A stretch of DNA of 64,000 nucleotides from assembly GCA_008632985.1 (NCBI GenBank), contig QPGO01000014.1:634289-698288 (forward strand), given 5' to 3'. The translations under genes and the position numbers were made by a program. Position 1 is the first letter of the stretch, and each line of letters begins with the position of its first letter. This DNA comes from Psammoneis japonica. Lineage: Eukaryota. Shown here piece after piece: positions 1 to 34,387 of this stretch. Under the pieces are notes generated by a model. The model had not been told where the DNA came from. It saw nothing but the letters and a program-made list of their open reading frames with translations, and ran no database searches.

Positions 1-2620
1 GAGTTCTCTTGATGGACTGCTCACATGGTCTCCCAAACTCTGCATGGATGGTGTCATGGTTGGCCCTGGAACAAATCCCTCCAAATCAAAGGTTGACCTG
101 ATGCCCTGCCTGGACAAGAGCAAAACTGGTTCCATTGTCAAGTTTTGCCCTCAGAGACATCCTCCCACCAATGAAAGCCATCTTCTTCTAAAACGTGATG
201 TGCAAAATGCAGCAGCCGGTGAGTGTTGCAAGTTGGTGACAGACCAAGGTCGCGACATTTTTGAGTGCTGTCGTCACAAAGTTTGCAAGCCAAAGCACTC
301 CAAATCCAAGCCATTGAAGAATGAAAAAGAGTTTGGGAATGAACTCTTTCCAAACCACCAAACGTCAGGCAATTTGCATCGTCAGTCAATGCACAACAAC
401 AAGAAGCTCAACCAAGGTCGCCCCGCACAGAGCAACGGCAGGTGCACCACAACAACTCTGCCCATTCACAAAGCGCACTGGTGTTGATTTCACTTCACAA
501 TCAAGTTCCACAATTTTGGCAATCTGGAAGACGGGTGCTTCCACCTGTTGTGCTGTTGTGGCATCCACACTTGTCACACGCACCCACGCAGTGCGCAGTG
601 GTGATCATGTGACGCGGTCTCTGTCTCAGTTGTTGGAAGAGACGAAGATGCCAGTTAAGATGGGTGGCATGGCATCCACAGGATCTGGAGTTGTTTGTTG
701 TTTGATGCATCACATGACCAATGAAACAGTCACCCAATCTCAGGTCCAGCGCCTTCAGTCGAGATTGCAGTCTTCTGTCTCTGCCAGCAAGTCATCCTCC
801 TCTGACAAGTTGCCAAGGCATTTGCGTGACAGGCGTCAATTGCTGTCCTTCACAGCCTTGCATCACTTGGTTGATTCTCAGTTTGTGAAGCATTGCAAGG
901 GCCATCCTCCAAAGGGCGGCTGCCATCCCATCTCAGAGATCAGAAAGGATCTCACTGTGAATGTGGAACCCATCATCAATGACTGTGATGCTGACTGCTG
1001 CATTCCTCCTTTGGCCAGCTGGTCTCCTGGTGATGATTGTGATGATGATGACAACTGCATTCCTGCCTTGACCAGCCAGTCCTCTGGTGAAGATTGTGAT
1101 GACAACAGAAATGATGATGCGGAAAACAATCTCCACATGCAAGGCTTCATTGAGTCAGATGTTGCAACCGGCCAAAATCCAAGGTGGTGCATTTTGGTCC
1201 ATTTCAGCCGGGAGCAACAAAGTGTGGTGTTGTGAACCAAGAGACTTCTCAAGCAAAGCCCAGCCAGTGATTGCTCCTCATCACCGCTTGGTGCTTTGAC
1301 TGTGAATGGCGTGAGTTCCTGAGGAATCTGGACATTGTCACTGTTGACGCCACACAGTTGGGTAAAGCCAGGCTGTGACACAAAATTGCAATGTCAAGTT
1401 TCCAAGCATCTGTTTTTTCTCCTTTTTAAAAACTGGAAGTGCTTGCAGCGTTGGGCAAGGCTGCAGCACAGAAAGTTCACGATTGGGTCATCAATCACAT
1501 CAAGCCATGCAAGAACAATTGTCTCTTTCATTTGCATGGTTGTGTGAGGCACCGTGACGAGTGCGCTGGGACTCCCAGCGAAGGCATGAACAAAGCTGTC
1601 AAGAAAAGCGGTGCAGCATCAAGACCCAACATGAACCTTGACACCTCAGCTCAAGCCATGGAGAATCAATCGCAAATGAAGAAATGCGAAACCAAAAGGA
1701 AGAGAGCACAGGACTTGCACACATCAAATTTATGGGCAAAGACTGGCCTTGAAGGCAAGGTCATGAACCTCATGAAGCAACTCATAAAAACACAAGTCCT
1801 GCAGTTTGTCAACTGCCACATTGCCAGGATGGGTCCCTTGGAGTGGTTGTTTCTTTGCAAAGAGGAGGGTGGTGATGCAAGTTCACCCAGGAAATGTGAT
1901 GTTCTTCCATGTTTCCATCATTTACGTCATGTGACCAAGACACCTGATGGTTGTCTCCTTTGTGATTGTGGATGTCATCATCACTGCGGCATTCTGTGTT
2001 GACACACCATTGCCACATCTGGTGCTCCTTTGCTGTGTGGCATGTCTGTCAGGTGGCAAAAAGGATGCCAGCACTTGGCTCATGAGGATGGGCATGAAGG
2101 CATCACTGATCTGTTCAAAAGATGCATGGACAGCGAGACCTCCATGCAAGGTCATGTCAACAACACCCTGCCATCACAATGTCCTCAGTTGAACGTCCTC
2201 TGTCATGAGGATGGTTTGACTTTGGAGTCATTCAATGAAGCAAAGAAGTTGCCTGTTCCTTTGTGCTTCAATTGTCCCACATCTGCACATGACAAAGAGC
2301 CATCCAGCAATGAAGAGGGCATGATCATGACTCAGGAAACATTGACTCAAGATTGGGTGGAAAACATCAAAGTTGGAGACTCCACTCTCATGCTTGACAC
2401 GCATTGCTGTGACCTCAAGAACCTGGCAAATGGGAAACCAGAGCTGTGCTCCATTGCACAGAACACCACAATTGAAACGATTGGTGCCTGCAAACGTAAA
2501 ATCATCGAATTGGACCCCACTCACTTGTCTGCCATGCAGAACTCAGAAACAGCATCATCTGTGGTGGGAGTGTTAACTCATCAACAATCGAAGCGACACA
2601 AAACCCGCAGTTGGAGGCAA
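1..2620 (+). pseudogene. Decayed Mutator-like (MULE) transposase with SWIM zinc finger; 5' part may lie outside the window
   Basis: Fragmented ORFs (44-487, 321-1235, 1439-2002, 2030-2830). At 1961-2005 it reads CDCGCHHHCGILC*H, matching SWIM CxC-x(n)-CxH with a probable CGA->TGA stop. The upstream fragment EGMNKAVK resembles the ExxN motif after the MULE DDE core. Strongly TpA/CpG depleted. Confidence 0.6.
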
Positions 2621-2699
2621 CAGCCAATCACACATCTAAATCACTTTTACAAAACCAGTGCTTTGTTTTCCGTTGCCACAAACCACAGAGACAACCAAT

Positions 2700-4260
2700 C
2701 ATTCACCTGCTCCACCGCCAACCGGCAATGGTTGTGGAACCAGGAGTTCTTTTTCAGCATCCGCAAACACAGAATGCAACGAAGCATTCATGGCCACATC
2801 CGCAGACACGTTCAACATGACCAGATTTGAGTCCGGTTCATCCACTGGAGTGAACAAGCCACTCAACACATGCCCCAGAATCTTGTCCTGATGTGCACTC
2901 AGCATCTTTTTCAAATTGGCCAGGTCCATGTGTGCACCAAAGCAAGGGATGCAGCACAGAATTGGACCCCGAATGGTGACATCACATTCATTGGTCCACA
3001 CACGATGCTTGGCAATGCTGCCCTTCGTCACCAAAGAAACAAGAGGATTGGTGCAAAGCAGAGGTCAAAGAAATGTCCATCGGTTGATGATGACTGACTC
3101 TGACAGATCTTGCATGTCAACTTCTCAACATGTTGCAGTGATGCTTCCACCCCAGTCCTGGCATGAATTGCCACCTTCAAATGCTTCAGCATCTGCCGCA
3201 TCAAAATGGAGGCAGGAACCTTGCATTTGTCACACAGCCATTGGATTGGTTTGGACTTGTCAACGTCAACCCATGTTGAGCAGTGCATGGGAAAGGTGCC
3301 AACAGGGATGTGAGAAACAAGGAGGTGCACAACTCCAAGATCACCAACTTGATCAAACTCCTGTGCCACAGCATGAACTGACATTGTGTGAGCCTCTTTC
3401 TTGGATGCAGCTGACTTGGAGACTTGGTTGTTGGCGGGACAATGCAAGGATGTTGCCAACAAGTGCATGAACAAAGAACAACATTCAGACCATTTTGGGA
3501 TCTTTGGTTTCTTGTGCTGGTTGCACCAACGTGGTGCCAAAGGCAATCCAGTGCTCCGCATTTCTTGTCAATGGCGTCCATCAAATGCAGGATGAGACAG
3601 CCAAGCAAAAAACCATGATGGCGAGCCTTCTTTAACTTCGGTTCCTGTGGCATGCAGTGGATGGCTGCACAGAAATGGTGATTTGCATTGGGAAAGCATC
3701 CCGCCAATTGCATGAGTGAAATTTCCTCGGGGTGGGTTAAGTTCAGTTTTTTGTCAAGCTTCAACATGTGAAAGGTGGCAGATGCAGTGTGGCCATTTGG
3801 ATCAAAATTGCATGGCACCTTGGTGCAATCAAAGCCAGGGATGCAATCCACAGCAACTCCCTGGGCAAGGGTCTTGTGATCCAGGTGACGGCAGAACTCG
3901 TTGGACTCAAAACACTTCTCACACACATGGTCAACATGTTGCTCATGTTGGTGCACCTTGGAGTCGGCTGAGAAGAGGCTTCAGTGACCAAAACCCAAAC
4001 AAACAAGATGCTTCTGCTTGCCACTGAGCACCACTGGTCCAGACAGAGACACAGTCAATGCATGACAAAGCTGGGACGGATTAAAGAAGTCCAGATTGTG
4101 CTTGTTGGTGTGTGTTGGAAGGGGATCATCTTCATTGGTGATGCCAAAGTGACCAGCAGAAAAGATGCCACCAGGAAACAATTCTCTTGCATGAGAGACC
4201 ATTGGATGGGATGTGTCTTCATGGGAAAATGCGGACCACATGCATGTGGGACATTTCAAT
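2700..4260 (-). pseudogene. Second decayed ORF of the same element, possibly a Ulp1/C48-like protease
   Basis: Overlapping minus-strand fragments (3981-4259, 3201-3956, 3028-3561, 2699-3034) convergent with the MULE ORF. Only faint motif resemblance (NHHF..., Q..G.N...CG). MULEs are known to carry Ulp1-like genes. Confidence 0.2.
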
Positions 4261-4302
4261 CACAATGGCTTTCCATTGGTCATCTTTCAACGCATGCTCA
4301 CA

Positions 4303-4437
4303 AAAATGGGGAAAGCAAAAATGGGAAAAGCAAAAACAGGGAAAGTTCAAACTTTTCCCAGAAATTCAGGAAAAGCAAAAATGGGGAAAGTAAATTGGGG
4401 AGAAAGTCCAAACTTTCCCCAGAAATCTGGGGAAAGT
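4303..4437. repeat. Cluster of short AAAATGGGGAAAG-like repeats, probably transposon subterminal motifs
   Basis: aaaatggggaaag, aaaatgggaaaag, aaaacagggaaag and related copies in 4303-4437. The motif recurs at ~14200-14240 on the far side of the Ngaro insertion. Confidence 0.6.
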
Positions 4438-4673
4438 CTGTCTGTGTGCAGCATGCAAATCTGCCAAAAAAGAGGAAAGCATGTTTTTGCATGCAAATCC
4501 AATGAAATTTTAAAATTCACATGTCAAAAAGTGGAGAGCCACAGTCCAGCTGGTGCACGCAATGATGCACATGGCTTCAAAGCACGGGTGGTGCTTCTCA
4601 ATGCCATTTCGAAATGTCACAAGAGAGCAGCACAGTTCTTGATCCGTGTGTTGAAGGCTTGTTGATGAGACCA

Positions 4674-5140
4674 GATTTGATTGGGTGTGCCGAGTTCAGC
4701 AAAAACTCTGGAACTTGAGAGATCTGGCCAAGAACCACTGAGAAGTGACATGGTCTAAAGATGCTCAGGAGTCTCACAGGGTGAAGCTCCAGGCAAGAGC
4801 TTTGCAAGCTTTGCCCCGCACAAGGGGGGGTTGGGCAGGACCTGAAACCCTCTGCAGGGTCCTGTGCAAAACACACAGGGGCTAGTGGAATGGGACCTTC
4901 AAGCCTCACTTTGGATGTTTCTGGTGGCAAGGTTGAAGAAGGGCCACCTGCGGCATTGCATGATGCAGGTGCACCCAGGTTCGGCAACAGTTCAACCACT
5001 GGATCCACCACCAACACCTGTTGCAGCACCCTCAACACCAGGCTGCAGGTGAGACCAATGGCAAAGCAAGCAGGTCCATTCCTTGTCCCTTGTTTGATGG
5101 CTCCCATGGCCGGTCAAGTGGGGTGGAGCACTGAAATCCC
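4674..5140 (-). repeat. Split direct repeat B2
   Basis: gatttgattgggtgtgccgagttcagcaaaa...ggtcaagtggggtggagcactgaaatcccc aligns along its length to 5414-5935. Confidence 0.9.
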
Positions 5141-5149
5141 CGGGCATTG

Positions 5150-5413
5150 TGGGTGGGAAACAAAAAGAAGACACTTCTCCAAAGTGCATCATGCATGTGA
5201 TCTAGTTACAATGATCAGGATCCCTGTCTCAACAATGCTGCAAAAGTGAGAAGATGTAAAACCAAAAGTTTGTCAAGTCATGATCAGAAAAGACTGTGAC
5301 TGGACATCTTGGCCTGGAGGCACCCTCCTCCAGAAAGATCTGGTTCAATGCCCCAAGGGGCACTGGGCCCTTGGTGACACTTGGCATCTCCATCTCAACT
5401 TGGGCATGAAGAG
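5150..5413 (-). repeat. Split direct repeat A2
   Basis: aaaagtgagaagatgtaaaaccaaaagtttgtcaa...ccagaaagatctggttcaatgccccaaggggcactgggcccttgg...gaagag matches 13800-14063. Confidence 0.9.
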
Positions 5414-5935
5414 GATTCGATTGGGCATGCCAAGTTCAGCAAAACCCTGGAACTTGAGAGATGTGGCCAAGAACCACTGAGAAGTGACACAGTCTAAAGA
5501 CACTTGGGAGTCTCATGTGGGGCAAAGCTCCCGGGAAGAGCTTCACCCCACACAAGGGGGGTTGGACAGGACCCAAAACCCTCCACAGGGTCCTGTGCAA
5601 AACAACACAGGGGCTTGTGGAATGGGACCTTCAAGCCTCACTTTGGATGTTTCCAGTGGTGAGGCCAAAGAGGGGCCACCTGCAGCATTGCATGATGCAG
5701 GCATCCCGTTTCTGGTGGCAAGGTTGAAGAGGGGCCACCTGCGGCATTGCGTGATGCAGGCACCCCACTTTGGCAACAGCTTGATTGCTGGATCTGCCAC
5801 CAACACCTGTTGCAGCACCCTTGACACTGGGCTGCAGGTGAGACCAACAGTGAAGCAAGTGGGTCCATTCCTTGTCCCTTGCTTGACGGCTCCCATGGTT
5901 GGTCAAGTGAGGTGGTAGAGCAATGAAATCCCCCT
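5414..5935 (-). repeat. Split direct repeat B1, with an internal ~57 bp tandem duplication absent from B2
   Basis: Aligns to 4674-5140. The unit gaggggccacctgc.gcattgc.tgatgcaggca occurs twice (~5670 and ~5729). Confidence 0.9.
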
Positions 5936-6020
5936 GGTGAGACTCCCAGGTGGTGGCCACCAAACATCAAACAGACGGGGCTGTCCTGCCAAGATTTAAC
6001 AAAACCATGAGCAACTGCCA

Positions 6021-7600
6021 TCACATGGCCTTGGTGTGCTGAAGGAAGGATGGCAGCAACAGAGAAATGTCCGCAAGGTGCTGTTGCATCTTGAGGGTGG
6101 GTCTGGCTCCTCCAGCTTGCTCCTTTCTCTTCCAACAGTTTGTGACATCAATGTTGTCTTCAGGGACCTTCTGTGCAATTGCTTGCCAGTCTGAGCTGTG
6201 TCTGAACAAACAGTTGACATTGCACTTGTCTTTGACATCATCATGGGAAAGGATGTTGGCCCCAAAAGTGAAGGGCAGTCATCAAAGATTTCTGACAGCA
6301 CCTGATGGAGTAGAGATTTTAACACTTGAGCAGTCCGGCATCAGAAATTGCTGGTCCTCATGAGTGCCCCACTGAAGCTTGTAGCAAGATCACAGCATAA
6401 ATTCACTGGCACAGATTGACACCCAAGTCAGTGACATTGACACAGGGCAACAAGTGCTGCCGGCCACTCCCTGTGCTCTCCCTTCACTCTCCCCAAGAGT
6501 GGAGCTGTGGCATGTGAGGTGTGTCTTGGACAGTGGTCAGTCATCGCCCCAAGGTTGATCAGGACCCCCTCTGGCCCCCAAGGGACGGGGCGTGACTTGC
6601 TGCAAAGTGAAGACCCCCAGATGAAAACAGAAACCTGTCCTCATGCGCAGTCACTCTTCCAATCTTTTCCTCTCCACTCCATGAAGAAGATGCTGCATGG
6701 CTTGTTCCAACACCGCTCTGTCCAGCCTTCAGTCCTGACCCATTTGCCACTTGCATCCCATCATGAACCATTGGAACCACAGTGAGGCACACAGGCCATT
6801 GCACCAGTGCAGGCGCTGCTTTCCCTTGAGATCCACCAGGGCCAGGGCCCTGGAGTCAGTGGACATGGAAGCCCAAACCTGGTTTGAGCAGGCTGTTCAA
6901 AGCTTCGGGATGGTGTCAAATTGGGTGTGCTGGTTGGAATGGTGCCCCGGCATTGTTGATGCCAGAACAATCTGCATTGCCACCTTGCACCCACAGTGGT
7001 TGCAAGCAGGGAGAGGGCCGGGTTCTAAGTGCAGTCCTGGCAAGCCCAGACACTCTGACAATGCCAGACCTTGGGTGACCTTCGAGGCATTGCTCTTGAC
7101 AGTCAAAGTCTCCCTGCTCCAAAAGGAGTCCAGCACCACCCAACAGATGCACGCTTGATCCACTTTGTTGCGTGGAGACCCAGGGAGAGGCTCCCCATGG
7201 TGGAGCTTGTGGAACATGAGAAGTCACACTGAAAGACACCACAAGGTGGTCCCCCATCCTGGTGCACAGAAACTTGTCCTCATCTTGTGGCTTTTGATGC
7301 CACTTGTTGTCCTCCAGCCATGCCGCATCTTTGAGGCCTGTGCTCTCATCATTGCTTGGTTGGTCGTCTGCCATTGTGCCCCCCAGACAGAACGTTGCGC
7401 TTGGACTTGAAACACAGCACCCGGGACACCACACTTTGTGACACATGGGCCAACCCCCAACACTGTGCACAAAATTTGCACAGAAGATCCCTTTTGTCCA
7501 CGTGAGGGTCTTCCCACACTCAGTGCAATGCCCTGTCCATTGCGTGCATCTTGGGAGCACCTCAAAGCTGCCAAGGACTGTGTGAGATGAAAGGAAAAAC
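6021..7600 (-). pseudogene. Tyrosine recombinase of the Ngaro element
   Basis: C-terminal fragment FRHSSDWQA...DNIDVTNCWKRKE.AGGARPTLKMQQH.ADISLLLP resembles the (R)SFRRG...NRW...M.xHY end of DIRS-order YRs. Cys-rich N-terminus (CANF...CHKVWCPGC). Position downstream of RNase H fits. Confidence 0.65.
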
Positions 7601-7779
7601 AATGCCAATGAGAAGAGGCTCAAACATGTTGTCTGGCTAGAAGAGCCACCTTGTGCAGTTGTTTTTGAGAACCCACCCAAAACTTGGGAGTTTCCACAGC
7701 TTCACAATCCAGGTGCTCCCATCCGGCAATGTCGTGACCTTTCTGGAACCAATCCATTGGGTGCAACAGTTCCAGGATG

Positions 7780-10700
7780 GGAGACAAATGGGGCCTGGGC
7801 GATGGCCCCAAGGTGGAGCGGAACGAACGCGCAAGCATCTTGGCTCTGCTCATGACACCCTCAGACAGGACACTGCGTGACCCTCCGTCAGTGCCTTTTG
7901 CAATCATGCGGCACCCTGACACATGGACCAATGAGAAGAGAAACCCATGCTTTGCTTCAAGGACCCTGAGACCTGAGACGGATGACTTGTTTGAGCAGCT
8001 TGGGGCCAGATGAGGTGCCCTCATAGATGGTGGCCTCTGACACTGAATTGTCTGTGAAGAAATAAAAAACCGCACCACAGAGCTCTCCAGCCTCTCCCAG
8101 CTCTTGGATTGCATCCACAATGTTGGTGAGCTCTTTCCAGTTGGACGAGTCATCCACATCATCTTGTCCCCAGACTCCGATGCAGAAGAGGATGGCACCA
8201 TCCTTGGTCTCTGCCAATGACCCCAAACCCTTTCTGGAGGCATTGGCAAACATGCACAAGACCACAATGATTTTCAACAAGTTAACAACTCTGGCTGCAG
8301 AGTCCCGTGGCTCCAGAATGCAGTTCATTGCTTCCAGGTCCAAGCGAAGTTGAGGGACAGCCCAAACTTCTGAGGGGTGCTTGAGTCCGCAAAGCTCTTC
8401 CACAAGATCACCAGGGTCGACACCTGATTTTTCAGCTTCGTGGTTTGCCCATGCCACATGCTCTTTGCTGGACATGGCCCACCCATCCAACTTTCTGTTT
8501 GGTCTCCACCCATCCAGAGTGAGGTGGATTCCTTTTAGGAAGGGATGGGTCATTGCCATGTGGACCAAGAATCCGCAAACCCGCTCCAGCTCCTTGCAAT
8601 TGGAATGGGAAAGATTGCCATTGGTTTGGTCACCATGCTCTGCTGGGAGAGAGCAAATCACACCCTTGACCTTGTTCCACTTCACCGTGGCAATCAACTG
8701 GGTGTCATCACCATTGATCACCCAAAAAATGCCCCCCGCCCAGGCTCCCTTCTCGAGTTGGGAGGGAGGCCTCGCTTTCCAATTGGCGCTCTGCATTCCA
8801 AAGTGTTGGACTTGAGAGACCATCTGGTGCCCAACCTGCCAGGAATTTTCCTTGCTTGAGCCCATGCCTCTCAAATCATCCATGAAGGTTCTGACCTCTC
8901 CAGCCATGGCTTCGGAGTGAGAATTCCACTTCTTCATGATGAGAGGCTTGGAAAGATCAAAGTTTTTGTCTTCAGGTGGGTCAAGGATGACCTTGTTGAA
9001 TCCCATGGCATTTGAAGCCTGCACAGGGTCACCTTGTGCTATTTTGTTGGCCCAGCAATGCATTCGCACTGCAAGATGTGGGCTTGGTTTCACACCCACA
9101 AACAAGCGAGTCCACTGTTCGAGGCCTGGTTTTGGTCGCGCCAGCCTGGACAGCTGTCGGCTCAGAGCACCCAGATCAATGCCTGCATGTGGTCAGATCT
9201 TGGGGTCCATGAAGAAATTTAAAAACATGTCAGCCAAGTCCAAGTCGATGGAGAAGGTGGCATCGGTCATGCAGTCAAGGACTGAGGAGAAGCAGTCGGC
9301 AAAAAGAATGAGGGGGGCCCAAAGCGCATCGTTGAGCCCTGACAAAGTGCCGTCATAAACCATTTGCATGTCCTTGACAACCTCCACTGGCTTCCCACCT
9401 CTGAGCTCCACCTTCACCATTTTGGGGGCCCAAAAACAGTCTGTGAGACTGGTGGTCACCGGCGCTGGCTGAGTGTGCCCGCGATCCTGGACTTTCTGGA
9501 TTTTCTCTGCCAACCGATCGATTTCATGTGGCGTCCCCTGAATGCGCTGGCATTTCTGATTTGTTGGAAGTGTGCCCTTAAAGAATGTGGGGAGCCCGTC
9601 TCGAGTGGCAATCCGCTGTTCTGCAGTTGGCCACCACCAGAAAAACACAAGGACGAACCCTCGCCCCACTTCCACCATCATGAGCTCTGCAGGACCTGGG
9701 TCAAGACATCCATTCCCTGTGGGGCACACTGAATTGATCTCACACATGGGGTGCAACCTCTGTGGTGAAGTGGGGGGGAAGGGGGGAAAAGTGTAAATCC
9801 GTTTTATGTTGTAAAACACGTGCTTCGCCGTGTAAAAACACACAGTTTGGCTCATCACCCTATATTTTACGTTTATAATCCTACGTAGCAGCGTTTATCA
9901 CGCAATCGTCGGTCTGTCGTCGGTCTTTGTTGATCGCGGATCAAAAGCTGCAGGATTCCGCAAGCCGAACATTCCCTGTCAGTGCGCGCGATTTGAATGC
10001 GTAAACAGCAAAAACTGCTCGACTCGACTGTCGAAAGCACCATGACGACCCAAGCCGCTGCTTGTCACTAGAGGGCGTTTTACAAAACAGGGGTGTTTTA
10101 CACAATTTGTCAATCTGGGGTGAAAGTGGGGTCATGTTGCATCCACCAAAAGAGGAGGTGAAGGCGGTTGGTGATGTGCCCCCCCCCCGTTGATGCTCAT
10201 GAGTGTCCCCATGCAGGACTCTAAGCCCCCCCAGAGAATGGCTCCAGTCTGGGCCATAAGTCTGACTCAAACACCGAACAAGGAGCGAAAGAGTGAGGTG
10301 CCGTTGCTCCACCACCTGAATGCCAGAGTGCGCAATCAATCCAAGAATGGTGAAAGTGCCGCTGTGACGTGGGAAGCCAGGTGGCACCGGTGACAGGTTG
10401 AGAGTCCTCAGGCTTGGCTCAGGCATGCATGCATCACCCTTGGGAGCAGCTGTGCTTGGAGTCCCAGCCAAAACTTCATCCTCCCAGGAGCTTGTGAATT
10501 TGTCCAGAGGCAGGGATAAGATGTTCAATGGGACAAGGGGCCCAAGACCCCCCATGGAAGCCATCAAGCCCTCTGCTTGGGGGTGCGGTGCCACAACAGG
10601 AAATCCAATGCCCCTGGAATTTCCGGTGGCGTGAGTGTGCAAGAAATCCATCCAGTGTGTGACTGACAGGACCTGAAGTGAACCAACCAATCCAAGTGGG

Positions 10701-11270: not shown

Positions 11271-11289
11271 AATGACATGCCTCAGGTTG

Positions 11290-24585: not shown

Positions 24586-24672
24586 AGAGACAGAGGAAAG
24601 CTGAGTTGTAATCGACACTCAGTTCACCAAACATTTACAAATTTACACTGCACCGGCAAAAAAAAAAACAAC

Positions 24673-25545
24673 TCAGTCTTCGTCGCTGTCCTGAAGCACC
24701 AAGTCGTCATCGACGTTCAGGTCAACTTCGCAGTTGAGCTCGACATCATCGTCGGCCTCTTCTCCAGCTTCTTCTGCCGGAGCTCCAATGAGACGACAGA
24801 GTTCCATGGGCAACGACCCCTCGTAGAAGCAACTGTGAAGTAAGTTCTTGTTTTGGGCGCACCAACCGATGTGAAACTGACCACCTTCCTTCTGAAGCTC
24901 GGCAAGCGCCGCCTCGTTGCCGATCACTTCGGACCAAACAGCATCCTTCATCCAGAAGAAGTTGTCTTCAACGAAGACCTCGGTGTTGTTCTCAGGGTCA
25001 TCGTTCAGCTGCTTCGCAATGTGCTTCCCGAGGCCGCGCACTTTAGCATCGGTTGGGACTTCTTCGAGGAAGATGAAGAAGAGACGCACGGCGCAGTTCT
25101 TGGCGTTCGTCTGCAACTCGCCCTCGTGAACCCACCTGCCAGCGCAAGGGTGGAATCCGACTTGAACCGCCCACGGAGTCCTGCTGCGAAGGTTGTCAAA
25201 CAGAACCTTCTCCGACCAAACATTGGTCAAAAGGGGATTCTTGGCTTGGAGACGAAAAACGACGCCTTTCTTGCGGCCGACAGTGACGGTGGCACAGCGC
25301 AGGAGGGCGTCCTTGTCGGAATGGCTGCCATCGTCAGAACCGGCGGATTTGGAAAGCTTGAACCCATGCTTGGCAAGGCAGTCTTCCGGTTTAAGGTCGT
25401 CATCGGTCAAGCCGTTGGTCTTGCGGGGCGGACTTAGTTTCTTCAACAGAGCATCAGAAAACTTCGTCTTTGCCTTCTTCTGTTTGGTTTCGGCGACTTT
25501 GGCTTTTGCAGCCGGGGAGGTCGTTGTGTTTCTTTTGCGTGCCAT
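24673..25545 (-). CDS. Hypothetical protein with basic N-terminus and acidic C-terminus (Helitron cargo)
   Basis: Open frame of 290 aa from MARKRNTTTSPAAKAK to ...DDDLVLQDSDED; A-rich tract after the stop. No family recognised. Confidence 0.6.
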   Translation of the reverse strand: MARKRNTTTSPAAKAKVAETKQKKAKTKFSDALLKKLSPPRKTNGLTDDDLKPEDCLAKHGFKLSKSAGSDDGSHSDKDALLRCATVTVGRKKGVVFRLQAKNPLLTNVWSEKVLFDNLRSRTPWAVQVGFHPCAGRWVHEGELQTNAKNCAVRLFFIFLEEVPTDAKVRGLGKHIAKQLNDDPENNTEVFVEDNFFWMKDAVWSEVIGNEAALAELQKEGGQFHIGWCAQNKNLLHSCFYEGSLPMELCRLIGAPAEEAGEEADDDVELNCEVDLNVDDDLVLQDSDED

Positions 25546-26409
25546 CGAATCAGTTGGAGAGAAATTGTGGGAACAAAAAGTGCGATCGTTCAGAAGTGCC
25601 AAGAAAGACCCAGCAGAGCTGCGCACATCACACCAAGGAGAACTGGCAACGTCAGCAACCAGATCCAAACACGTCGAACTGCAACAAGGCAACCTTCCAG
25701 GTGTCAGCACTTGCAAGTGGTGTGTGGATTCAATTTGAACAAAACAGACACAAGGATCGGAGCACGCAAAGTCGCACTGAGTTTGCTGAAAATGCGTAAA
25801 ATCACGTGCAATTCCGTCCGTGCTTCGTGTGCATTTCAGCCGTTGCTGCCGCGCCGCCATCGCGCACGAAATCTAGTCGCCAAACGGTCGACGCCATCGC
25901 TGTCACTGCGGCACATGCTGCACCGGCAGTTAGCTGAGGTGGGCCCATCACCCATTTGGAGGATTTGCGCGCACTTTGGAAACACGAATGACGTCAATCG
26001 CACTGCAATTGCCACACGACTAACTCAACTGCCCCGCCACTCGTCAAAGCGTGATTCTGCGGAATTCACGTGAAGCTGCGCCCACCACCAAGATTGCTGA
26101 AACAACTTGAACAAGATCCAAATCTCACCCCATGGAATGTTCAGAGCAGGTGGTCGAAACAACTTGAACAAGATCCAAATCTCATCCCATGGGATGTTCA
26201 ACGTCGACGAAACTAAGTGGGATGTCGCACGTCTGGTGCGAAGAAGGACGTGGGAGGAACGCACACATCACTCTTCCGTCGAGGTGAAAGAGGCACACTT
26301 TCGTCTCACTTTTTTGTGACAGAACCTTTGCGCAAAGGGAAACGAAAAGCATCCCAACTACGGTGATTGGGCCACACCGATCGCAGTTCTCAGTTCTCAC
26401 AGTGACCTG

Positions 26410-27295
26410 GTGACGCAGGTTGTGAGACAATGCACAAGCTCAGCTGCGGTGACTGGACAACACCAGTCGCAGCTCTCACAGAGACCTGATCGCACAGGTT
26501 GTGAGAACACGACACAACGCTGCGGTGATCGGATGGCACCGACGCAGTTCGTCAAGCAACCAATTCACTTGGCTGCGGTGACTGGACGACACCAGTCGCA
26601 GCTCTCACAGCAACCTGATTGCACAGGTTGTGAGCAAACAACACAGCGCTGCACCTCGTGACGTAGGTTGTGAGACAACGCACAAGCTCAGCTGCGGTGA
26701 CTGGACGACACCAGTCGCAGCTCTCACAGAGACCTGATCGCACAGGTTGTGAGAACACGACACAACGCTGCGGTGATCGGATGGCACCGACGCAGTTCGT
26801 CAAGCAACCAATTCACTTGGCTGCGGTGACTGGACGACACCAGTCGCAGCTCTCACAGCGACCTGATTGCACAGGTTGTGAGCAAACAACACAGCGCTGC
26901 ACCTCGTGACGCAGGTTGTGAGACAACGCACAAGCTCAGCTGCGGTGACTGGACGACACCAGTCGCAGCTCTCACAGAGACCTGATCGCACAGGTTGTGA
27001 GAACACGACACAACACTGCGGTGATCGGGTGGCACCGACGCAGTTTGTCAAGCAACCAATTGACTCGGCTGCGGTGACTGGACAGCACCAGTCGCAGTGC
27101 TCACAGCGACCTGATTGCACAGGTTGTGAGAAGACGACACAGCGCTGCGGTGAACGGGTGGCACCAACGCGGTTCGTTGATCAACTGGACAGAACCACTG
27201 CGGTGACTGGACGACACCAGTCGCAGTGCTGCAGGTGGCGAGAAAACACACATCGCTGTGGTGATTGGACAGCACCGATGGCAGCTTCACGGTGA
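26410..27295. repeat. Higher-order tandem array, 248 bp period (129+119 bp subunits), ~3.5 copies
   Basis: gtgacg(c/t)aggttgtgagac at 26410, 26658, 26906. Core ctgcggtgactggac.acaccagtcgcag recurs at ~26443, 26572, 26691, 26820, 26939, 27068, 27197. Confidence 0.95.
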
Positions 27296-27371
27296 TCGCA
27301 CTGAAAAAACAACTGTTTTTGCTGAGCAACTTCTTGAAATTTGTTGAGTTAAAGTGTCAGCTTAAATTAAA

Positions 27372-30300
27372 ATGGACGAGGCCAACTCCCGTGTTTGCAA
27401 CGCAATCAACAGAAAGTTTGAGATGCTCCATCTGCATGGAGACGGAGAATTTAGACCACACGCATGTTCAGTCTGTGACGTTCTGCTGAAACCTAGAGAA
27501 GTTTGCTGCTTGCCGCTCGAAACATTGGAATCAGCAAGAAACTTGCTCACCCCTTCAGACTGGAACAGCGCATCTGATCGTCTCAAGTCCTGCCACACTG
27601 CAGAGCATGAAGATGCTGATTGGATCAAAGACCTGCTGCTTTCTCCCCGCGCCCAATGCGCAGCACAGGAAGACAGACGACGCGTCGACGGATTCACTTG
27701 CTGCAGCGAATGCCGAAGAAGCCTGGGAAGAGCCGTTTTGCCAATGTACGCGACAGCGAACAACTGCTGTTTCGGCACCCCGCCGCACGAACTGTTGTCT
27801 CTAACCGAAGTAGAGTTGGCAATGCTCACACCAGTGAAAACATGCGGATGCTGCTTCAGCCACCTTGGCGGCAAACAGAAGAAGCTTCAGGGAAGTCTGA
27901 CGTGCTACAAAGTCAAGACACAAAGCATCGTAAGAACTGTTGTGCACTTCGACGCACTGAATTTACATCAGAATGTGATTGCACTGATGACTGGAAAGAT
28001 GACTCCGGAGCAAAGACAACTTGCGCGTTCAAAGAACAGAATTAGGACGCACCACATGCTGAGGGCGATGGAATGGCTGTTGCACCACAACCAAGAGTGG
28101 GTGTGCCAACAGACAAATCTAGACGAAGTTGGGCGTAATCTGCGGAATCCCGTGCTTGTCGATGGCACCGGTGAAGAAGAAGGAGAAAATGCAAATGTTG
28201 AGACCTCAGAGTCATTTCATGTTTGCTTTCCTGATGGAACCATGTCTCCTGCGACCGGTGGTCAGCGCAACCTGGGCTGCTTCAAAGATCTTGCACATGA
28301 AGCTGCTGCCAACGGATTTGATTTAGAGGTGCAAGCACAGTTGTCTAAAGAATCTGCGAGTGATTTCAAAGGCAACAACTTCATCAACGCGTGTCTGCTG
28401 CAGTTTCCTTTTGGCAGAGGAGGAATCAATGAGACGAGAATGAAGAAAGACGGAAGTCTTGCAGACAGCACCAACCTTGCACACCATGCCGACCACTTGG
28501 CACGGATTTCCCAGCCTCACTTCCACGAGCAGCTCTTCGTGTTAACATGCTGCAACTTGACAATGAAGCAAAGGATGCCACAGAGCGCAGGGTGGAAAGT
28601 CAGGGACAAGAATCAGGCTGCACAGTTTGCAAACGAACTGACAGTGGACGATGTGGATGGAGCTGTTTGTGATCGCAACTTGGGCGAGAGAAGAGATTGT
28701 GGACTCGGGCACCACTTTTTGCGCGCACTCGACGTTGCATCTGCGTCTCTGCCACACAGCAACGAAGCAGCAAAGAAAATGAGGAGAAACGCCGAAACTT
28801 GTCAGCATCATTTTGGCCAGGGTGGCATTTTCTTAACCGTCAGTCAGGACGATGCAAATTCGTTTCTTGTGCAACTGCACTCGGGTGTCATCCTGGACCC
28901 AAACGAAGACGTGACACAACTGACGGACGAAATTCTTGCCAGCAGGGCCAAGCAACGTAATGAACTGCGTCTAAAGTTTCCCGGTCTAACAGCCTTTGCA
29001 TTCGAGTGCTTGTTTGACATTGCAATGGAAGAGGCAGTGGGTTGGGATCTGAGTGCCAACCAACCAAGAGAAAACTTTAACTTCCACATTGGCAGGCCAG
29101 CCGCATTTTTAGCTGCAGTTGAGGAGCAGGGACGTCCAACAGCACATGGACACATGCAGATCTGGTTTGCATCGATCAACAATGCAAGAGAGAAACTGCA
29201 TTCGCCAATGAGACAGATCCGACGCGAAGGTGCTGAGCACCTCACCAACATGGTTCAGAAGATCTGCAGCATGGAATTAATCTGCAGCGAGGACTTCAGC
29301 ACTGAGCGCATTGCGTGAAGCATTCGATCATGACTGCACAGTGCCAAAAATGCATCGCACCTCTCCAAAAGTGGCAGACGACCAACAGCCAAGAAACCTG
29401 AGGCACAAAGACGGCCAGCAGTCGAAGAACGGAATGTTTGCTTGTTGTCGTCACTGCACCAAGTGCTGGACAAACGTCGAGTTTGTAGAAAGCTTTTTAC
29501 AGTCACGGCACCGTGCACCTGGCCTGACTCACTGTCCAGACAACCATGCAAAGCGACTAAAAGCAATGTGTGTACAATGCCAGCGAAGTGGTCCGCAAGG
29601 GACAACAGAGGCACACACACCGGACGCAGCTTACAACCATCACATGCATGTTACGAAGTCGTGTTTTCCCAAATGCGTGGAGTTACGTAAAATGCGTAAA
29701 AAAACCCCACACGAGGAACTGGACACGCAGTCAAGGAAAAGAAAACGAGAGGAGCTCAAACTGGGTGACTGCCGTCACAGGCAACCAGCTGCTTCATGTC
29801 CAAATGATTTGGCAAGGAATGCAGATGACACTCAGATAAAGTGGTTCAGCTGGGATGGAACTTTTGCGCATCGGTGCGTGAAGGAAGTTGTTCCGAAGAG
29901 GAGAAAGTGCGATGCTTTTCAAAACGTGTCATGCCCTGCAACAAGCAGATCAAAACTGACATGCAACACAAACATTGCTTTGTTGATGCCTGGACCGTCT
30001 GCTCAATGCACGATCAAGTGCATCCTAAAAGATGCCCAGAAAGATGACACTGCATTGTACGACGAAGTGCTTCGAACTACGAACAGGACAGCGACGGAAT
30101 TACGGAAACACGCATCTGATGCATCGGAAGCAATCAGACGTCTCACATGGGGTGCTTGCTCGCATGACAAGACGAACGTCATTGGACCACCACTTGCGTC
30201 TTACACAACAAGGAATGGAAGCCGTTTCATCGAATCTCATTTGACCGCATGGTGCCCCTTGAAAGACATTGTCAGCACACTAGAAAGAGACGAAATGTCT

Positions 30301-33023
30301 GTGACTGTAGCCCATTTTGGCGACACACCGTTCTTCCAATGCCAGGCCTTGCACTGCCCATGTCGTCCAACAGCACTGGAGAATCTCAGTCCGTTTGCGT
30401 TTTTTAGTGAGTGCGAAGTTCTTCGCAACACAAGGAAAAACGAACACGGCATGATGATGTTCGACAACAGAGCGCACAGGCACCCGTCTTGCAATTCAAT
30501 GAAGAATGAGTTTCTTCAAGGTGTCAGACAGCGACAGCAACCGCGATTGTTAAAAGCACTTCAGTGTGATTTTCCTGATGCAGCCAAGTTTGGCAGTTGC
30601 CTTGTAGATCCGCAGCAACCAACAACACTGGACAAAGAATTGCACTGCAAGTTGGCATTGGCCTTGTTTGCGCCTTGCAGAACAATGACGGAACTCAAAC
30701 CAATGACCCATGCATGCCTGCGTGAATTCCAACTCTCCGCAGCAGCCAGTGTCATTGCAGAGGAAAACTTGAACTTCTTGCAGAACCTGCAGGATGCTGA
30801 GTCCAACTGCCTTCGTCTCAAAAGCACATCTGACGATCTGCAAAGAAAGACGGAGCAATTTAGACCTGCTGATGTTGTGTTTGACTGTTGCGAAAGTGAC
30901 GAGGAAGAAGGTCTTTCAGGCGCCGTTCAGGGTCAACTGCTGGATGCACTCTTGGAAGAAATGGCAGAGCAGCCAGAAGACGATGACATTGGGTTGAGCG
31001 ACCAAGCAGTTGTTCCTGCGCATTTGAGCGGCAAACGTGCAAGACAGAAAGGTTCACACATGGGTGGCTGCAAATGCTTGGCAGACATGCACACTGACCC
31101 ACCAAACGAGGAAAGCAGGTCAATGAACGACAACTTTTTGAGAATCTAGAGGGCGGCGATGACACCGACGAGGAAGACCAGAATGAAGGAGTGCAACAAC
31201 ACATCCACAGCAGACCACTGTCAAGAGATGACATTGTTCGAGTGATGCTGACTAGAATGCAAAGAACAAGAAGGTCGTTTGAGGACATGACAGGTTTGGA
31301 AGAACACGTCGATGTACATCAAGCAAACGGATCTGCAGCAAGTGTCGTAGACTGGGCTGGGAAAGCAAGACTGGACAGGCAACAGCAGCGTGCCTTTGAA
31401 ATTCTAGCAGGAACCTTTGTGCTCACTTGCTGCCAAGACGCTCTTCAAGACAAGACGTCACGCAATGGACTCAACAGGAGAAACAGCAGACACGAATTCG
31501 CAACAAACCTTCACCGATTGAAGAAACTCGTGGAAGTGCAAAGACGCAGAACGTTGCAACTTGTGTGTTTTTTACATGGTGCAGGTGGAAGTGGCAAATC
31601 AACCACAATGGACCTCGTCATGGAATGCGGAAGAGAGCATTGCTCGCTTGTTGAGCAGCCGTTCACAACAAGCACAATCAGAGTGACTGCACTGACCGGA
31701 GTGGCTGCGACTGTTCTCAAAGGGGACACAATCCACCAAGTTGCATGCCTCATGAGAAGAAAGCAAACAACCGAAGAGCAAATTGAAGCATGGTCAGACA
31801 CGAGACTTTTGGTGGCAGACAAGATTTCTTTTGCAAGCAAGAGAGAACTAGAAAAACTCCATGAGAATTTAACAGCATTGAAGAGCGAACCAAGCAAGCC
31901 GCACGGTGGCATCAACATTGTTTTCGCAGGTGACCTCAGGCAACTAGAACCAGTCGGAAAAGGAGTGAAACCACTGCACAAAGATGCATGTCCCGAGTTT
32001 CACGAGTGGATCAACTGCCACACAGAACTTCATGGTGTGCACAGGTTTAAAGACGATCCATCATGGGGAAAACTGCTTGAGAGATTCCGCACTGGTGAGA
32101 TTACAGTTGACGATGTGGAGTGCATCAATGAACGAGCAGTTCAGAACAAAGATGATCTGCCCAGTGACCTCCGCCATGCCACGTACGCAAATAAGGACAG
32201 AGATGCAATTGACACTGGCCCATGCGAAAAAAGAGCAGAAACACTGCACAGAAGAGATGGAGACGTCCTTGACTCAATGTTGATTTTCAGTGACGACTTG
32301 CAGGCACAGAATGGCGCGAGACTCTGCCAACCATTTCCGGTTTGCAACAGCTTCTGGAACAACTGTGGTGAAGGAGACGTTGTCATGCAATCAGGAAGAA
32401 TGGATCCAGTCTTACGAATTTACAGAAGATGCAGAGTCATGACACCTTTCAACGAAAATGCAGCAAACGGTCAAGCAAATGGAACGCAAGCCACTGTTGA
32501 TGAGGTCGTTCTCAAACCAGGACAGGAACCAAGACTGGCAACTTTAGACAACAACATCAGCATTCCTGCTGCACTTGCCAGTCAGGTAGACCACGTTGCA
32601 TTGGAACACTGCAACAAAAGCATCGACCCCGCGAAGTTTTTAGTTGAGCCAAAAACAAATGCTTTCAGGGCTTGCATCGCCAAGCCCAGCCTAATTTTAG
32701 AAGAAGGCAACAAACAAAGGCACACTTTCCAACTGAAGGCAACCCAGCTGCCGTTTGTCATCAACAATGCCACCACAGGGCACAAACTGCAAGGGAGTGG
32801 AGTCCCGCAGTTGTTTGTACACTCTTGGAGCTGCACTCAGAATTGGGTGCATGTTGTGCTCTCCAGAGTAAAGACCAGAGAAGGGCTGTTCATGCGAAAG
32901 CCACCAAGCAAGGACCTGCAAAAACACAAGGTCCCAGAAGGCTACAAAGCCTTGACAAGACTCATGAAGGAGAGAAGCGCCACGCATTTTTCTCAGCAAC
33001 AGTGCGCAGAAATGTCAATGTAG
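27372..33023 (+). pseudogene. Helitron RepHel (HUH Y2 endonuclease plus PIF1 helicase), split by two frameshifts
   Basis: Rep: FLTVSQDD, AVEEQGRPTAHGHMQIW (HUH), QCTIKCILK (eroded YxxKYxxK). Helicase: HGAGGSGKST, TALTGVAA, GGINIVFAGDLRQLEPV, ATTGHKLQG, HVVLSRVKT. Frameshifts near 29315 and 31150-31190. Confidence 0.92.
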
Positions 33024-33169
33024 TGTGCAAACATCAGATTAGGATGCTCAACCACTGCACAACTGTTTGGCGACCCCAACCGTAAAAATGCGGAAATTTC
33101 GTAAAATAAAATGTTTTGATTAGATCAGCACATTGCGTGGAAATCTACACATGCGTCACACAACGTCGA

Positions 33170-33640
33170 ATGGATTTTAACCAACAAGCCAAGAAACGCG
33201 AACGCAACCGTCACAGAAAACGCAGCAATGGAGAAAACATGGATTTGCAACAACAAACAAAGAAGGCAGACGAGCCAAAGAAAACTGGTGAGGACAAGAA
33301 AAAGGTGCAGACACATGTGGAACTTCTCCAGTCATTGATGAACAAGGAAGACGAAGAGGAGATTACCTTGGAAGAAGCAAGAGCGGCGTTTGACCTTGCT
33401 TTGGGAAATTTTGATGTCACTTCTGCACTTGTGCAAGACAACACGACAGTGGACAGTCATCATGTGGAAACAACAGTCGCGCCCAAGGATGATTCAACCA
33501 TGGAGGAGCTAAAGGCAGCATGTGCAGCAGCGATTCCACAGCGGTCGGGGAGATTTTTCACCGAGGAGGAGATGGCTGAGCAGGAGAAGGAGCAAGCAAA
33601 GTCCCTTCAGAAGAAGCATGGCCAGAAAGAATGGAATTGA
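33170..33640 (+). CDS. Small charged protein with a possible UBA-like segment (Helitron cargo)
   Basis: 156 aa ORF right after the helicase. ITLEEARAAFDLALGNFDVTSALV resembles UBA helices 2-3. Confidence 0.4.
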   Translation: MDFNQQAKKRERNRHRKRSNGENMDLQQQTKKADEPKKTGEDKKKVQTHVELLQSLMNKEDEEEITLEEARAAFDLALGNFDVTSALVQDNTTVDSHHVETTVAPKDDSTMEELKAACAAAIPQRSGRFFTEEEMAEQEKEQAKSLQKKHGQKEWN

Positions 33641-34387
33641 GCAAATTGCAAATGACCATTCAGCAAAGACAACCGCATCAATGCGCAAAATACATGCACA
33701 TGGACTTTCACTTAAGCCGCCGCGGATTGAGCATGGCCACAAATGAGGACTGGCTGTTTGGCAAAGAAACTGCAACAATGCGCAAATTTCGCACATTTCC
33801 ACACTCACTTAATCCAACGCAGCTTGCCTCAGACAACATCAACATGCACAACTAGACAACATCAACATACACAGACAGCCTCATGAAACCTCACAGAAGA
33901 CAGAACGGTCAGAAGCAAAACAACCAGCACCACGCACTAACGCATGTTAGTCATGTCGCGTGGGTCGCGCAAAAGTGCGCACCGAAATAACCGTTATGTG
34001 TTATAATTAATTCGAACGCCCGGCGCAAAATGCAGCAAAATGATTGGTGCAGGCAATCGTCATGGCTCTATTTTCTGATAGTAGCGAGGGCGGCAATCCA
34101 AAATCTTTCGGTTTCAGACTTCGATCTAGAGAGTTCCACCTAGCTAAAGAGGAGGAACCAACTTTAGAAGTTCGGAACTTTCTACGTCACAGAGACGTCA
34201 TCGTGATTTATGCTTTTGAGCTCACGTCATCATCTCAATCTGCATTTCGCGGGGGCGGGAGGGGACAGTACCATGAAGAGCTTTCAGTTGCTCTGCTCCG
34301 GTTACTTGTTGCGACGCCGGTCTTCTTCTCATGGCGCTGAGCTGAAGCAGGTTGAGTTTTTGAGTGTTTCCGTTGAACCCAAGAGAC

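Follow-up and report, generated by a model that had tools for sequence, protein, structure and literature searches.

Directed mutation of mobile DNA in other systems

The loss of TpA dinucleotides described here, in a 64,000-nucleotide stretch of the diatom Psammoneis japonica that carries a high-copy Helitron transposon (contig QPGO01000014.1, positions 634,289 to 698,288; hereafter the window, numbered from its first letter), has its closest described counterpart in Bigelowiella natans. Mutation-accumulation lines of this species yielded 302 new nuclear point mutations, 231 of them in integrated giant-virus and virophage regions (Mettrop et al., bioRxiv 10.64898/2026.01.13.699255, 14 April 2026). 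As given in the preprint, 230 of these 231 mutations were of the types A>G and T>C, each of them at TpA; the rate in viral regions was about 1000-fold over background, and the effect was confined to some of the lines. The same source reports 324 TpA-depleted coding sequences, with transposase/DDE endonuclease and reverse-transcriptase domains enriched among them; clusters of 1-kb windows poor in TpA and rich in CpA and TpG number 124. Adenine deamination by an ADAT2-like enzyme is proposed by its authors (10.64898/2026.01.13.699255). A first-pass annotation of the diatom DNA, made from the letters alone, had known of no described mechanism for such a process; that statement is overtaken by the preprint, in which TpA to TpG/CpA hypermutation was measured.

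The diatom window shares with B. natans the A:T→G:C class of change, the restriction to TpA, the occurrence of both TG and CA outcomes, foreign or mobile DNA as the part that is hit and the sparing of the remaining genome. The differences are several. The host is a rhizarian there and a stramenopile (diatom) here; the rate was measured directly there, whereas here the end state alone is read. Depletion in the active regions of B. natans is mild, with a Rho TpA of 0.45 in the giant-virus region and a value above the genome average in the virophage region according to the preprint, while the ratios found here, 0.02-0.29, are near saturation. Its main text mentions neither flanking-base context nor diatoms, and a ranking of RTAY over YTAR seems to be unreported there; co-occurring CpG decay is not treated in that text either. 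A full-text literature search, subscription journals lying outside its coverage, found no report of TpA hypermutation in diatoms. The best reading of the diatom footprint is that TpA to TpG/CpA hypermutation of mobile DNA occurs a second time, in a phylogenetically distant lineage. The diatom adds three details: TpA loss proceeds independently of CpG decay, RTAY may be preferred, and stops are never created.

Fungal repeat-induced point mutation (RIP) resembles the diatom pattern as a transition hypermutation within YpR dinucleotides that targets mobile or repeated DNA and leaves sharp block edges beside intact genes. RIP converts CpA to TpA, which makes TpA and stops and lowers GC, whereas in the window TpA is removed, GC is raised and no stops are made. 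Accordingly, the C>T change at CpA that defines RIP is not what is found, TpA being removed and TAA and TAG stops reduced. As for a duplication trigger, the Helitron has about 40-85 copies, but the affected block 38508-39683 is single-copy. Diatom DNMT4 enzymes are related to RID and are described as of unknown function (PMC9998398); they are cytosine enzymes, and no link to TpA was seen. Deamination of 5-methylcytosine (5mC) in methylated transposons also gives an excess of TG and CA and is present in the class A blocks defined below, but it cannot remove TpA, and the Helitron has lost TpA with CpG intact. The earlier statement that neither RIP nor 5mC deamination could produce TpA removal is thus upheld.

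APOBEC3 (C>U on cDNA) and ADAR (A>I on double-stranded RNA) likewise act by deamination against mobile elements, and ADARs are credited with a preference for a 5' U. Their substrates are single-stranded cDNA or RNA and their footprints are strand-asymmetric, whereas the footprint here is symmetric and includes a DNA transposon. An ADAR-type process would leave A>G on the transcribed strand only; in the DNA transposon of the window, 24 T>C stand beside 19 A>G.

TpA depletion in the diatom window

It is highly probable, in our judgement, that the window records a real, targeted and dinucleotide-specific TpA to TpG/CpA hypermutation of transposon-derived DNA, with host genes spared. Over the window as a whole, the observed/expected ratio (o/e) was 0.28 for TpA, 1.50 for TG and 1.46 for CA. 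In 1-kb bins, TpA o/e was 0.02-0.11 across most of 1-19000, 46001-48000 and 57001-60000, 0.08-0.38 over 19001-34000 and 0.40-0.67 in host-gene stretches. Segmentation of the 64 kb with a two-state hidden Markov model (HMM) trained on dinucleotide frequencies gave sharp block edges and TpA o/e values of 0.02-0.08 in five depleted blocks, 0.16-0.29 in the Helitron and 0.51-0.63 in host-like segments. With host TA density as the expectation, the Poisson P for the TA deficit of the five blocks ranged from 1e-12 to 1e-105. Blocks depleted in both TpA and CpG are referred to as class A; the Helitron, TpA-depleted with normal CpG, forms class B. The stretches concerned are the following.

1-9792, no strand assigned: class A block; TpA o/e 0.06, CpG 0.27, TG 1.75, CA 1.65; 38 TA against 362 expected
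10101-19615, no strand assigned: class A block; TpA o/e 0.08, CpG 0.26; 46 TA against 351 expected
19616-33931, plus strand: Helitron stretch of intermediate depletion; 164 TA against 529 expected, o/e 0.16-0.29
38508-39683, no strand assigned: TpA- and CpG-depleted block amid host genes; TpA o/e 0.08, CpG 0.26; 6 TA against 43 expected
45288-48057, no strand assigned: TpA- and CpG-depleted block; TpA o/e 0.05, CpG 0.12, TG 2.00, CA 1.75; 8 TA against 102 expected
54800-55999, no strand assigned: partly TpA-depleted, CpG broadly normal; TpA o/e 0.21-0.44, CpG 0.62-1.48 (200-bp windows)
56500-59947, no strand assigned: TpA- and CpG-depleted block, the most extreme; TpA o/e 0.02, CpG 0.25; 5 TA against 127 expected

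The near-absence of TA that the first-pass annotation had ascribed to each of its repeat blocks therefore holds for the five blocks called by the HMM (0.02-0.08); its block 55100-56000 is depleted in part only (0.21-0.44), the stretch 54800-55999 having been left out of the depleted state by the HMM, and the Helitron is intermediate.

The missing TA is matched by a gain of TG and CA. Host DNA has 241-251 YpR dinucleotides (TG+CA+TA+CG) per kb, made up of 35-39 TA, 54-60 CG and 150-152 TG+CA. The corresponding figures are 233-244, 1.5-5, 8-17 and 212-234 in class A, and 248, 12.0, 56.9 and 179 in the Helitron (19616-34112). Relative to the host, the Helitron has thus lost about 25 TA and gained about 28 TG+CA per kb with the same CG, and since the YpR sum is constant between host, class A and Helitron, TA was converted and not simply lost. 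GC is 0.49-0.51 in the depleted blocks and 0.46-0.50 in the host. The depletion spans all frames as well as non-coding DNA. Per 1000 codon positions, 1-19000 has 3.9 TAA and TAG stops, where host stretches have 14-16. In block 1-9792, Tyr amounts to 0-0.5% in 7 of 8 open reading frames (ORFs) of at least 200 residues; ORF 9196-9894, which runs into an insert resembling a miniature inverted-repeat transposable element (MITE), has 2.1%.

Direction and sequence context of the substitutions

The direction of change was read at conserved residues in two coding regions of the affected DNA.

19616-34142, plus strand: high-copy Helitron of 14.5 kb, class B (TpA-depleted, CpG-normal), recognised by RepHel and by k-mer depth
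27366-29315, 29281-31146 and 31098-33020, plus strand: RepHel reading frame in three pieces, with Pfam DUF6570, Helitron_like_N and PIF1
7358-9716, minus strand: hypermutated retroelement protein, C-terminal two thirds of about 1300 residues (phmmer, tblastn)

The three Pfam domains fall in frames 27366-29318 and 31098-33023, and 120 long homologues, mostly of 1850-1980 residues, have the same domains. On domain content and homology, RepHel is a Helitron transposon protein in which a Rep (HUH/Y2) nuclease and a PIF1-type helicase are joined in one protein of about 1900 residues. Its three frames were compared with 40 full-length homologues (the first 40 of more than 1800 residues among 120 matches), a column being called conserved where at least 70% of the homologues agree. 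The window agrees with the homologues in 492 of the 621 conserved columns. At the 30 columns with conserved Tyr it has Cys in 12, His in 10, Phe in 4 and Tyr in 4, and all Cys and His codons at these columns are TGY or CAY. All 15 conserved Trp and all 18 conserved His are kept, as are 37 of 41 Arg and 29 of 31 Asn. Ile is kept in 9 of 22 columns (with 5 changes to Val, 4 to Thr and 1 to Met), Val in 18 of 30 (7 to Ala) and Leu in 57 of 74 (3 to Pro); these losses are what is expected from NTA to NTG/NCA changes and from T|A dinucleotides across codon borders.

Among the 129 changed columns, 84 are unambiguous single-step changes, 33 are multi-step and 12 ambiguous. The single-step changes comprise 24 T>C, of which 23 lie before A, 19 A>G, of which 17 lie after T, 8 G>A, 3 C>T and 30 transversions; that is, 43 of 84 are T>C or A>G against 11 in the reverse direction. 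The transversions are expected because of the long divergence from the homologues. Two Tyr columns four codons apart, at 30007 and 30019, are Tyr in 40 of 40 homologues and both read TGC in the window. We take this pair to be the catalytic tyrosine pair of the Helitron Rep motif, and with both residues now Cys the Rep function of this copy has probably been lost. The helicase motif HVVLSR is present, and its His codon, CAT at 32850, stands where 39 of 40 homologues have Tyr.

The readings of the first-pass annotation on this protein are borne out. The hand count of Tyr in RepHel is confirmed at about 8 in 1913 residues (0.3, 0.5 and 0.5% in the three pieces) against about 13 in the 362 of the neighbouring bilin reductase, and the claimed replacement of conserved Tyr by Cys or His is seen in 22 of 30 columns as well as in HVVLSR. 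Tyr content is 1.6-4.7% in the Helitron homologues and has a median of 2.55% in those of the retroelement. The Tyr poverty is therefore not a trait of the Helitron family.

The retroelement frame was compared in the same way with the best 150 of 1785 homologues, giving 189 conserved columns. Its six conserved Tyr columns read His in 3 and Cys, Phe and Tyr in 1 each. There are 5 T>C, 4 of them before A, and 4 A>G, at least 3 of them after T, so that the inferred T:A to C:G transition at TpA is found in both elements alike. In addition, 9 of 11 G>A changes lie at CpG, and only 10 of 18 conserved Arg are kept (2 changes to Trp, 2 to Gln, 1 to Cys); judging from these codons, G>A at CpG together with the loss of Arg is the footprint of CpG decay. 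The claim that unrelated repeat classes are affected thus stands for at least two, the Helitron and a reverse-transcriptase-like retroelement, with the adjacent host genes spared.

Both strands are about equally affected, as seen in the 24 T>C beside 19 A>G and the 12 Cys beside 10 His of RepHel, and this symmetry argues against a single-stranded or RNA intermediate. The flanking bases appear to matter. In the Helitron, the TA retained relative to host density was 0.00 for ATAT, 0.02 for ATAC/GTAT, 0.07 for ATAG/CTAT, 0.20 for ATAA/TTAT and for GTAC, 0.45 for CTAC/GTAG, 0.55 for GTAA/TTAC, 0.58 for CTAG, 0.82 for TTAA and 1.05 for CTAA/TTAG. Class A has the same ranking, with 0.59 for TTAA, 0.57 for CTAA, 0.18 for CTAG and at most 0.09 for all others. 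These contexts suggest RTAY, above all ATA/TAT, as a possible preferred target and YTAR (TTAA, CTAA, CTAG) as the poorest.

By the genetic code, a change of TA to TG or CA never makes a stop from a sense codon. TAA becomes TGA or CAA, TAG becomes TGG or CAG, TAY becomes Cys or His, NTA becomes NTG or NCA, and TA across a codon border gives GNN or NNC. Inactivation is consequently by missense (Tyr to Cys or His, Ile to Val, Thr or Met, Val to Ala, Leu to Pro), and the erasure of TAA and TAG stops leaves long, misleading open frames on both strands.

Relation of TpA loss to CpG decay

The five blocks called by the HMM have a CpG o/e of 0.12-0.27, so that part of their excess of TG and CA is ordinary CpG decay. 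This component had been left out of the earlier account, and the TpA loss stands beside it. Loss of CpG with gain of TG and CA, the 5mC type of decay, is found in class A and is missing from the Helitron, where CpG o/e is about 0.9 overall (0.5-0.94 in sub-segments). CpG decay explains part of the class A composition and none of the TpA loss. In the Helitron, which is young and of high copy number, about two thirds of TA are lost while the CpG and the reading frame are largely intact; in older blocks the loss comes to about 90-96% for TA and about 70-85% for CpG. As TpA is lost in the Helitron with CpG intact, the two processes are separable.

Identity and copy number of the affected elements

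Copy number was estimated from k-mer contigs of a public sequencing run (X1; depth about 60, longest contig 315 kb), which were aligned to 20001-40000. The summed k-mer depth is 2300-5100 over 20001-34007 against 60 in unique genes, which puts the Helitron family at about 40-85 copies. Of 3993 contigs, 1178 align at an identity of at least 99%, 1288 at 95-99%, 1219 at 90-95% and 308 below 90%. A search for public sequencing runs listed three, all from one sample, and no RNA data. The 5' limit of the element, near 19616, is drawn from the change of composition; at the other end, unique contig begins at 34113 and there is a loose end at 34142. Both frameshifts between the RepHel pieces vary among copies: part of the depth has one base fewer at 29304-29306, and the single contig over 31115 has an extra C behind 31115. 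These differences would close the frameshifts, so some copies probably have one open frame of about 1900 codons. An exact-word search with two Helitron words gave no match in metagenome contigs, and a search for shorter proteins found no close copies of the Helitron protein, the best being 54% identical.

Two further features of the element are a tandem array and its 3' end. The tandem array 26405-27230, just upstream of RepHel, has a period of 248, 3.0 copies, 96% matches and a sub-period of 129 bp; its copies differ chiefly at CpG (12 CG/TG or CG/CA sites against 2 CA/TA).

33932-34142, plus strand: 3'-terminal part of the Helitron, about 200 bp, TA retained; TpA o/e 0.62-0.86 (100-bp windows, 33900-34199)

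The bin 34008-34674 has a mean depth of 1854 with only about 135 bp of it repeat, and the depth of the 3' terminus is apparently about twice that of the element body. A deep end that retains TA would be in keeping with selection that preserves the ends needed for transposition, or with short derivatives of a non-autonomous kind.

Within the X1 contigs, 438 places vary over the Helitron copies. Transitions account for 386 of them (115 A>G, 105 T>C, 85 C>T, 81 G>A), with 4-10 transversions of each type. Among the 40 of these places that were listed, with adjacent pairs separated by hand, the window has TG or CA where other copies have CG at 13, and CG where others have TG or CA at 3; it has TG or CA where others have TA at 2, and TA where others have TG or CA at 3. 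Four double differences of TG against CA make up 8 places, other transitions 5 and transversions 6. Copy-specific TpA events thus occur in both directions.

The frame 7358-9716 has 1785 homologues in a phmmer search of 1.84 billion representatives (best E 4e-75), mostly of 1200-1330 residues, and homologue residues of about 444-1331 map onto it by tblastn. RVT_1 was matched weakly in 1 of 6 homologues scanned, and the frame itself gave no Pfam match reaching the cut-off in the window frames. From these homologues we call it a reverse-transcriptase-like retroelement of unnamed family. Direct repeats of 250 bp at 5161-5414 and 13815-14063, 85% identical and 8.4 kb apart, flank the retroelement frame; 29 of their 36 differences are transitions, and they may be long terminal repeats.

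The other blocks were searched to the same end. Among 110 open frames of the repeat blocks, none besides the RepHel frames reached the Pfam cut-off, and one of them nevertheless is the frame with 1785 homologues. A SET domain, from which the first-pass annotation had quoted a terminal YN turned into CN, stays below the Pfam threshold, with an E of 0.016 and 16 bits where the cut-off is 22.4. In block 10101-19615, ORFs of at least 110 residues gave no Pfam match at E<=0.05 except VSG_B at a chance-level E of 0.042, and an Atlas search with 11668-12633 returned nothing usable (best score 0.86). The description of all blocks as repeat-derived therefore holds for 20001 to about 34142, by k-mer depth, and for 7358-9716, by homologues, and is shown nowhere else. 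Self-BLAST found an inverted duplication in block 10101-19615 (15379-15803 against 17637-18061). TG exceeds CA over 15001-17000 and CA exceeds TG over 17001-19000; this strand switch near 17000 lies at about the centre of the duplication. GC skew reaches 0.37 over 18001-20000.

Between the two long class A blocks lies an unmutated segment.

9791-10103, no strand assigned: unmutated MITE-like insert of 313 bp, with 27-nt terminal inverted repeats at 9791-9817 and 10077-10103 that are 70% complementary

The corresponding host-like HMM segment, 9793-10100, has a TpA o/e of 0.74, a CpG o/e of 1.53 and 16 TA. The insert is either younger than the mutation episode or was not recognised by the mutation process.

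Host genes as internal controls

The host genes of the window are long and nearly intron-free. Two of them served as controls.

34364-35449, plus strand: ferredoxin-dependent bilin reductase, unmutated; Pfam Fe_bilin_red, E 1.2e-36; Tyr 3.6% (about 13 in 362 residues)
48240-52090, plus strand: NADH-fumarate-reductase-like gene, unmutated; Pfam ApbE / FAD_binding_2 / FAD-NAD oxidoreductase

In the fumarate-reductase-like gene, 255 of 286 conserved columns are kept; six of seven conserved Tyr are kept as well, the seventh being Phe, and none has become Cys or His. Within this window, then, mutation is confined to foreign or mobile DNA and host genes are spared, the identity of the element being shown for two blocks. 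The Atlas clusters nearest to the bilin reductase are commonest in Bacillariophyta, which is a lead. The best named relatives of the flavoprotein 49189-51192 are from Cyclotella cryptica, at 66% identity, and from Thalassiosira exigua, at 72% with 70% of the query aligned; the searched database contained no identical protein. The affinities of these host genes point to nuclear DNA of a centric diatom. The fumarate-reductase-like gene is spread over three frames (48240-49130, 49189-51192 and 51140-52093), reflecting introns or frameshifts; outside diatoms, the closest full-length relatives of the fusion protein are from dinoflagellates and kinetoplastids, at about 47-53% identity.

Mechanism and alternative explanations

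In the explanation that we prefer, TpA was turned into TpG or CpA (A:T→G:C) at the DNA level, about equally on both strands, in nuclear diatom DNA. Adenine at TpA would be deaminated enzymatically to hypoxanthine in DNA, by an ADAT2-like enzyme as proposed for Bigelowiella, and the silencing machinery would aim the process at mobile DNA as a genome defence; the system may be the same as in B. natans. The defence role, the targeting through silencing and the identity with the Bigelowiella system are what we infer. Adenine deamination at TpA is our tentative choice of chemistry, held at rather less than even odds. Since TpA is self-complementary, adenine deamination and thymine modification are not separable from sequence. 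In the latter, T at TpA would be made into a base like 5-hydroxymethyluracil or base J that mispairs with G and gives T>C; this option, already named in the first-pass annotation, fits the near equality of 24 T>C and 19 A>G as well as the other chemistry does, and the sequence itself holds nothing against it. 5-Hydroxymethyluracil in dinoflagellate DNA is enriched at TpA. No report of T modification in diatoms is known to us. With adenine deamination by an ADAT2-like enzyme as the only worked-out proposal in the published text (10.64898/2026.01.13.699255), thymine modification seems unlikely, and is the main rival on the side of chemistry.

A different question is whether the process still acts. 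Progenitor copies might have been hypermutated once, for example on entry, and then amplified or persisted, so that the process need not be active now. The 40 listed copy differences, in which 5 TA against TG/CA and 4 doubles of TG against CA compare with 16 at CpG, speak for such a single burst, as do the unmutated MITE-like insert within depleted DNA and the 3' terminus of the Helitron, whose retained TA and highest depth are expected if only transposition-competent ends were copied. In B. natans, too, no more than 11 of 15 lines showed the process in action according to the preprint (10.64898/2026.01.13.699255). On the other hand, copies differ at TA both ways (the window has TA at 3 listed places, the reverse holds at 2), the depletion varies by block, with values between 0.02 and 0.29 that suit repeated or continuing action, and self-amplification would have been impossible for a RepHel with Cys at both of the columns that are Tyr in 40 of 40 homologues. 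On balance we think a single past burst less likely than not, and the most serious of the rivals considered.

The remaining explanations fare much worse. An ADAR-like editing of element transcripts that were then copied back into DNA would profit from the preference of ADARs for a 5' U, as stated in the preprint (10.64898/2026.01.13.699255), and from the reverse-transcriptase-like nature of one affected element. The Helitron, however, is a DNA element without an RNA intermediate and is strongly affected, non-coding parts and a single-copy block are affected too, and editing of one strand gives A>G only, whereas T>C and A>G are 24 and 19 in the Helitron and 5 and 4 in the retroelement; we regard RNA editing as very unlikely. 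Equally slim are the chances that the composition is intrinsic, the elements having evolved an avoidance of TA (for instance against a TA-reading nuclease) or having come from a TA-poor donor. The TA-poor state does seem largely common to the Helitron copies, but conserved residues are destroyed, including the invariant Tyr at 30007 and 30019, all frames and non-coding DNA are depleted, two unrelated families and several further blocks behave alike, homologues elsewhere have normal Tyr, and o/e values of 0.02-0.08 lie far under the 0.5-0.6 of the host. Modified bases can give systematic long-read miscalls, so an error of base calling or assembly was considered as well. The X1 contigs agree with the window at every position of 34113-37427 and differ from it at 1 within 38309-40000, a stretch that takes in a depleted block, and their depth of about 60 and longest contig of 315 kb indicate that the reads are accurate; independently of any read set, the changes follow codon-level homology and yield TGY as well as CAY. 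A technical artefact is accordingly given hardly any weight. Least probable of all is GC-biased gene conversion between repeat copies: copies are many and the changes run from AT to GC, but all save 1 of the 24 T>C and 2 of the 19 A>G lie within TpA, a dinucleotide restriction that conversion does not have, and the single-copy block is affected.

Several observations weigh against the reading of a targeted, continuing defence or limit its reach. In run X1 the block 38508-39683 is single-copy, a lone contig at a depth of 62.7 covering 38309-40000 with a mismatch at 1 letter, and depleted DNA surrounds the MITE-like insert, itself unmutated, between 1-9792 and 10101-19615. Targeting restricted to repeats, as the first-pass annotation had it, is not supported by this block and this insert, and neither present copy number nor location alone decides what is targeted. 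The copy comparison suggests that much of the TA loss in the Helitron may be common to its approximately 40-85 copies, and a loss so shared could be one burst in a progenitor that was amplified later rather than a continuing copy-by-copy defence. For 1-7357, 10101-19615, 45288-48057 and 56500-59947 there was no Pfam match at the curated cut-off, and neither Pfam nor Atlas gave an element type. Paralogue pairs in class A (5161-5414 / 13815-14063, 4674-5141 / 5414-5933, the inverted 15379 / 17637) and the 248-bp tandem array were also compared; the class A pairs show 42 discordant CA/TG sites where a simple model of CpG decay predicts about 28, so the pairs do not isolate TpA loss. The context ranking presumes that the ancestral elements had TA contexts like those of the host. 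Run X1 may be the assembly's own data, in which case it excludes an assembly error and is not an independent sample. Finally, it is from a single window of 64 kb that the scale of the process, its targeting rule and its role in defence are extrapolated.

Significance

Fungal RIP has its mirror image in a mutator of the A:T→G:C class directed at mobile DNA. To our knowledge, no directed mutator of this kind acting against mobile DNA was known in any organism before the 2026 preprint. Its occurrence in a diatom, in a far more advanced state, means that the process is not peculiar to one chlorarachniophyte. Candidate genes common to both lineages, deaminases and thymine-modifying enzymes among them, can now be sought by comparison, and the question reaches a group with transformable model species. 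The possible extended motif, RTAY over YTAR, would serve as a yardstick for a candidate enzyme. There is also a practical side, as hypermutated elements have long open frames that translate into Cys/His-rich, Tyr-free 'proteins', on which gene finders and domain searches will go wrong.

Public Helitron proteins from other marine assemblies have conserved Tyr columns changed to Cys or His in 7 of 17 (P0234), 9 of 30 (P0191) and 7 of 30 (P0218) cases, P0234 having 1.6% Tyr, 4.1% Cys and 5.0% His. As a lead, these three proteins may reflect the same process in other organisms, which would make it widespread. More speculatively, and with a chance that we would put at about one in three, TpA to TpG/CpA hypermutation might be an ancient defence shared across SAR (Stramenopiles and Rhizaria) or more widely. 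It would act on double-stranded chromosomal DNA of mobile elements that have newly arrived, before cytosine methylation and independently of it, would read an extended RTAY motif centred on ATA/TAT, and would proceed to near saturation, disabling its targets by missense changes only.

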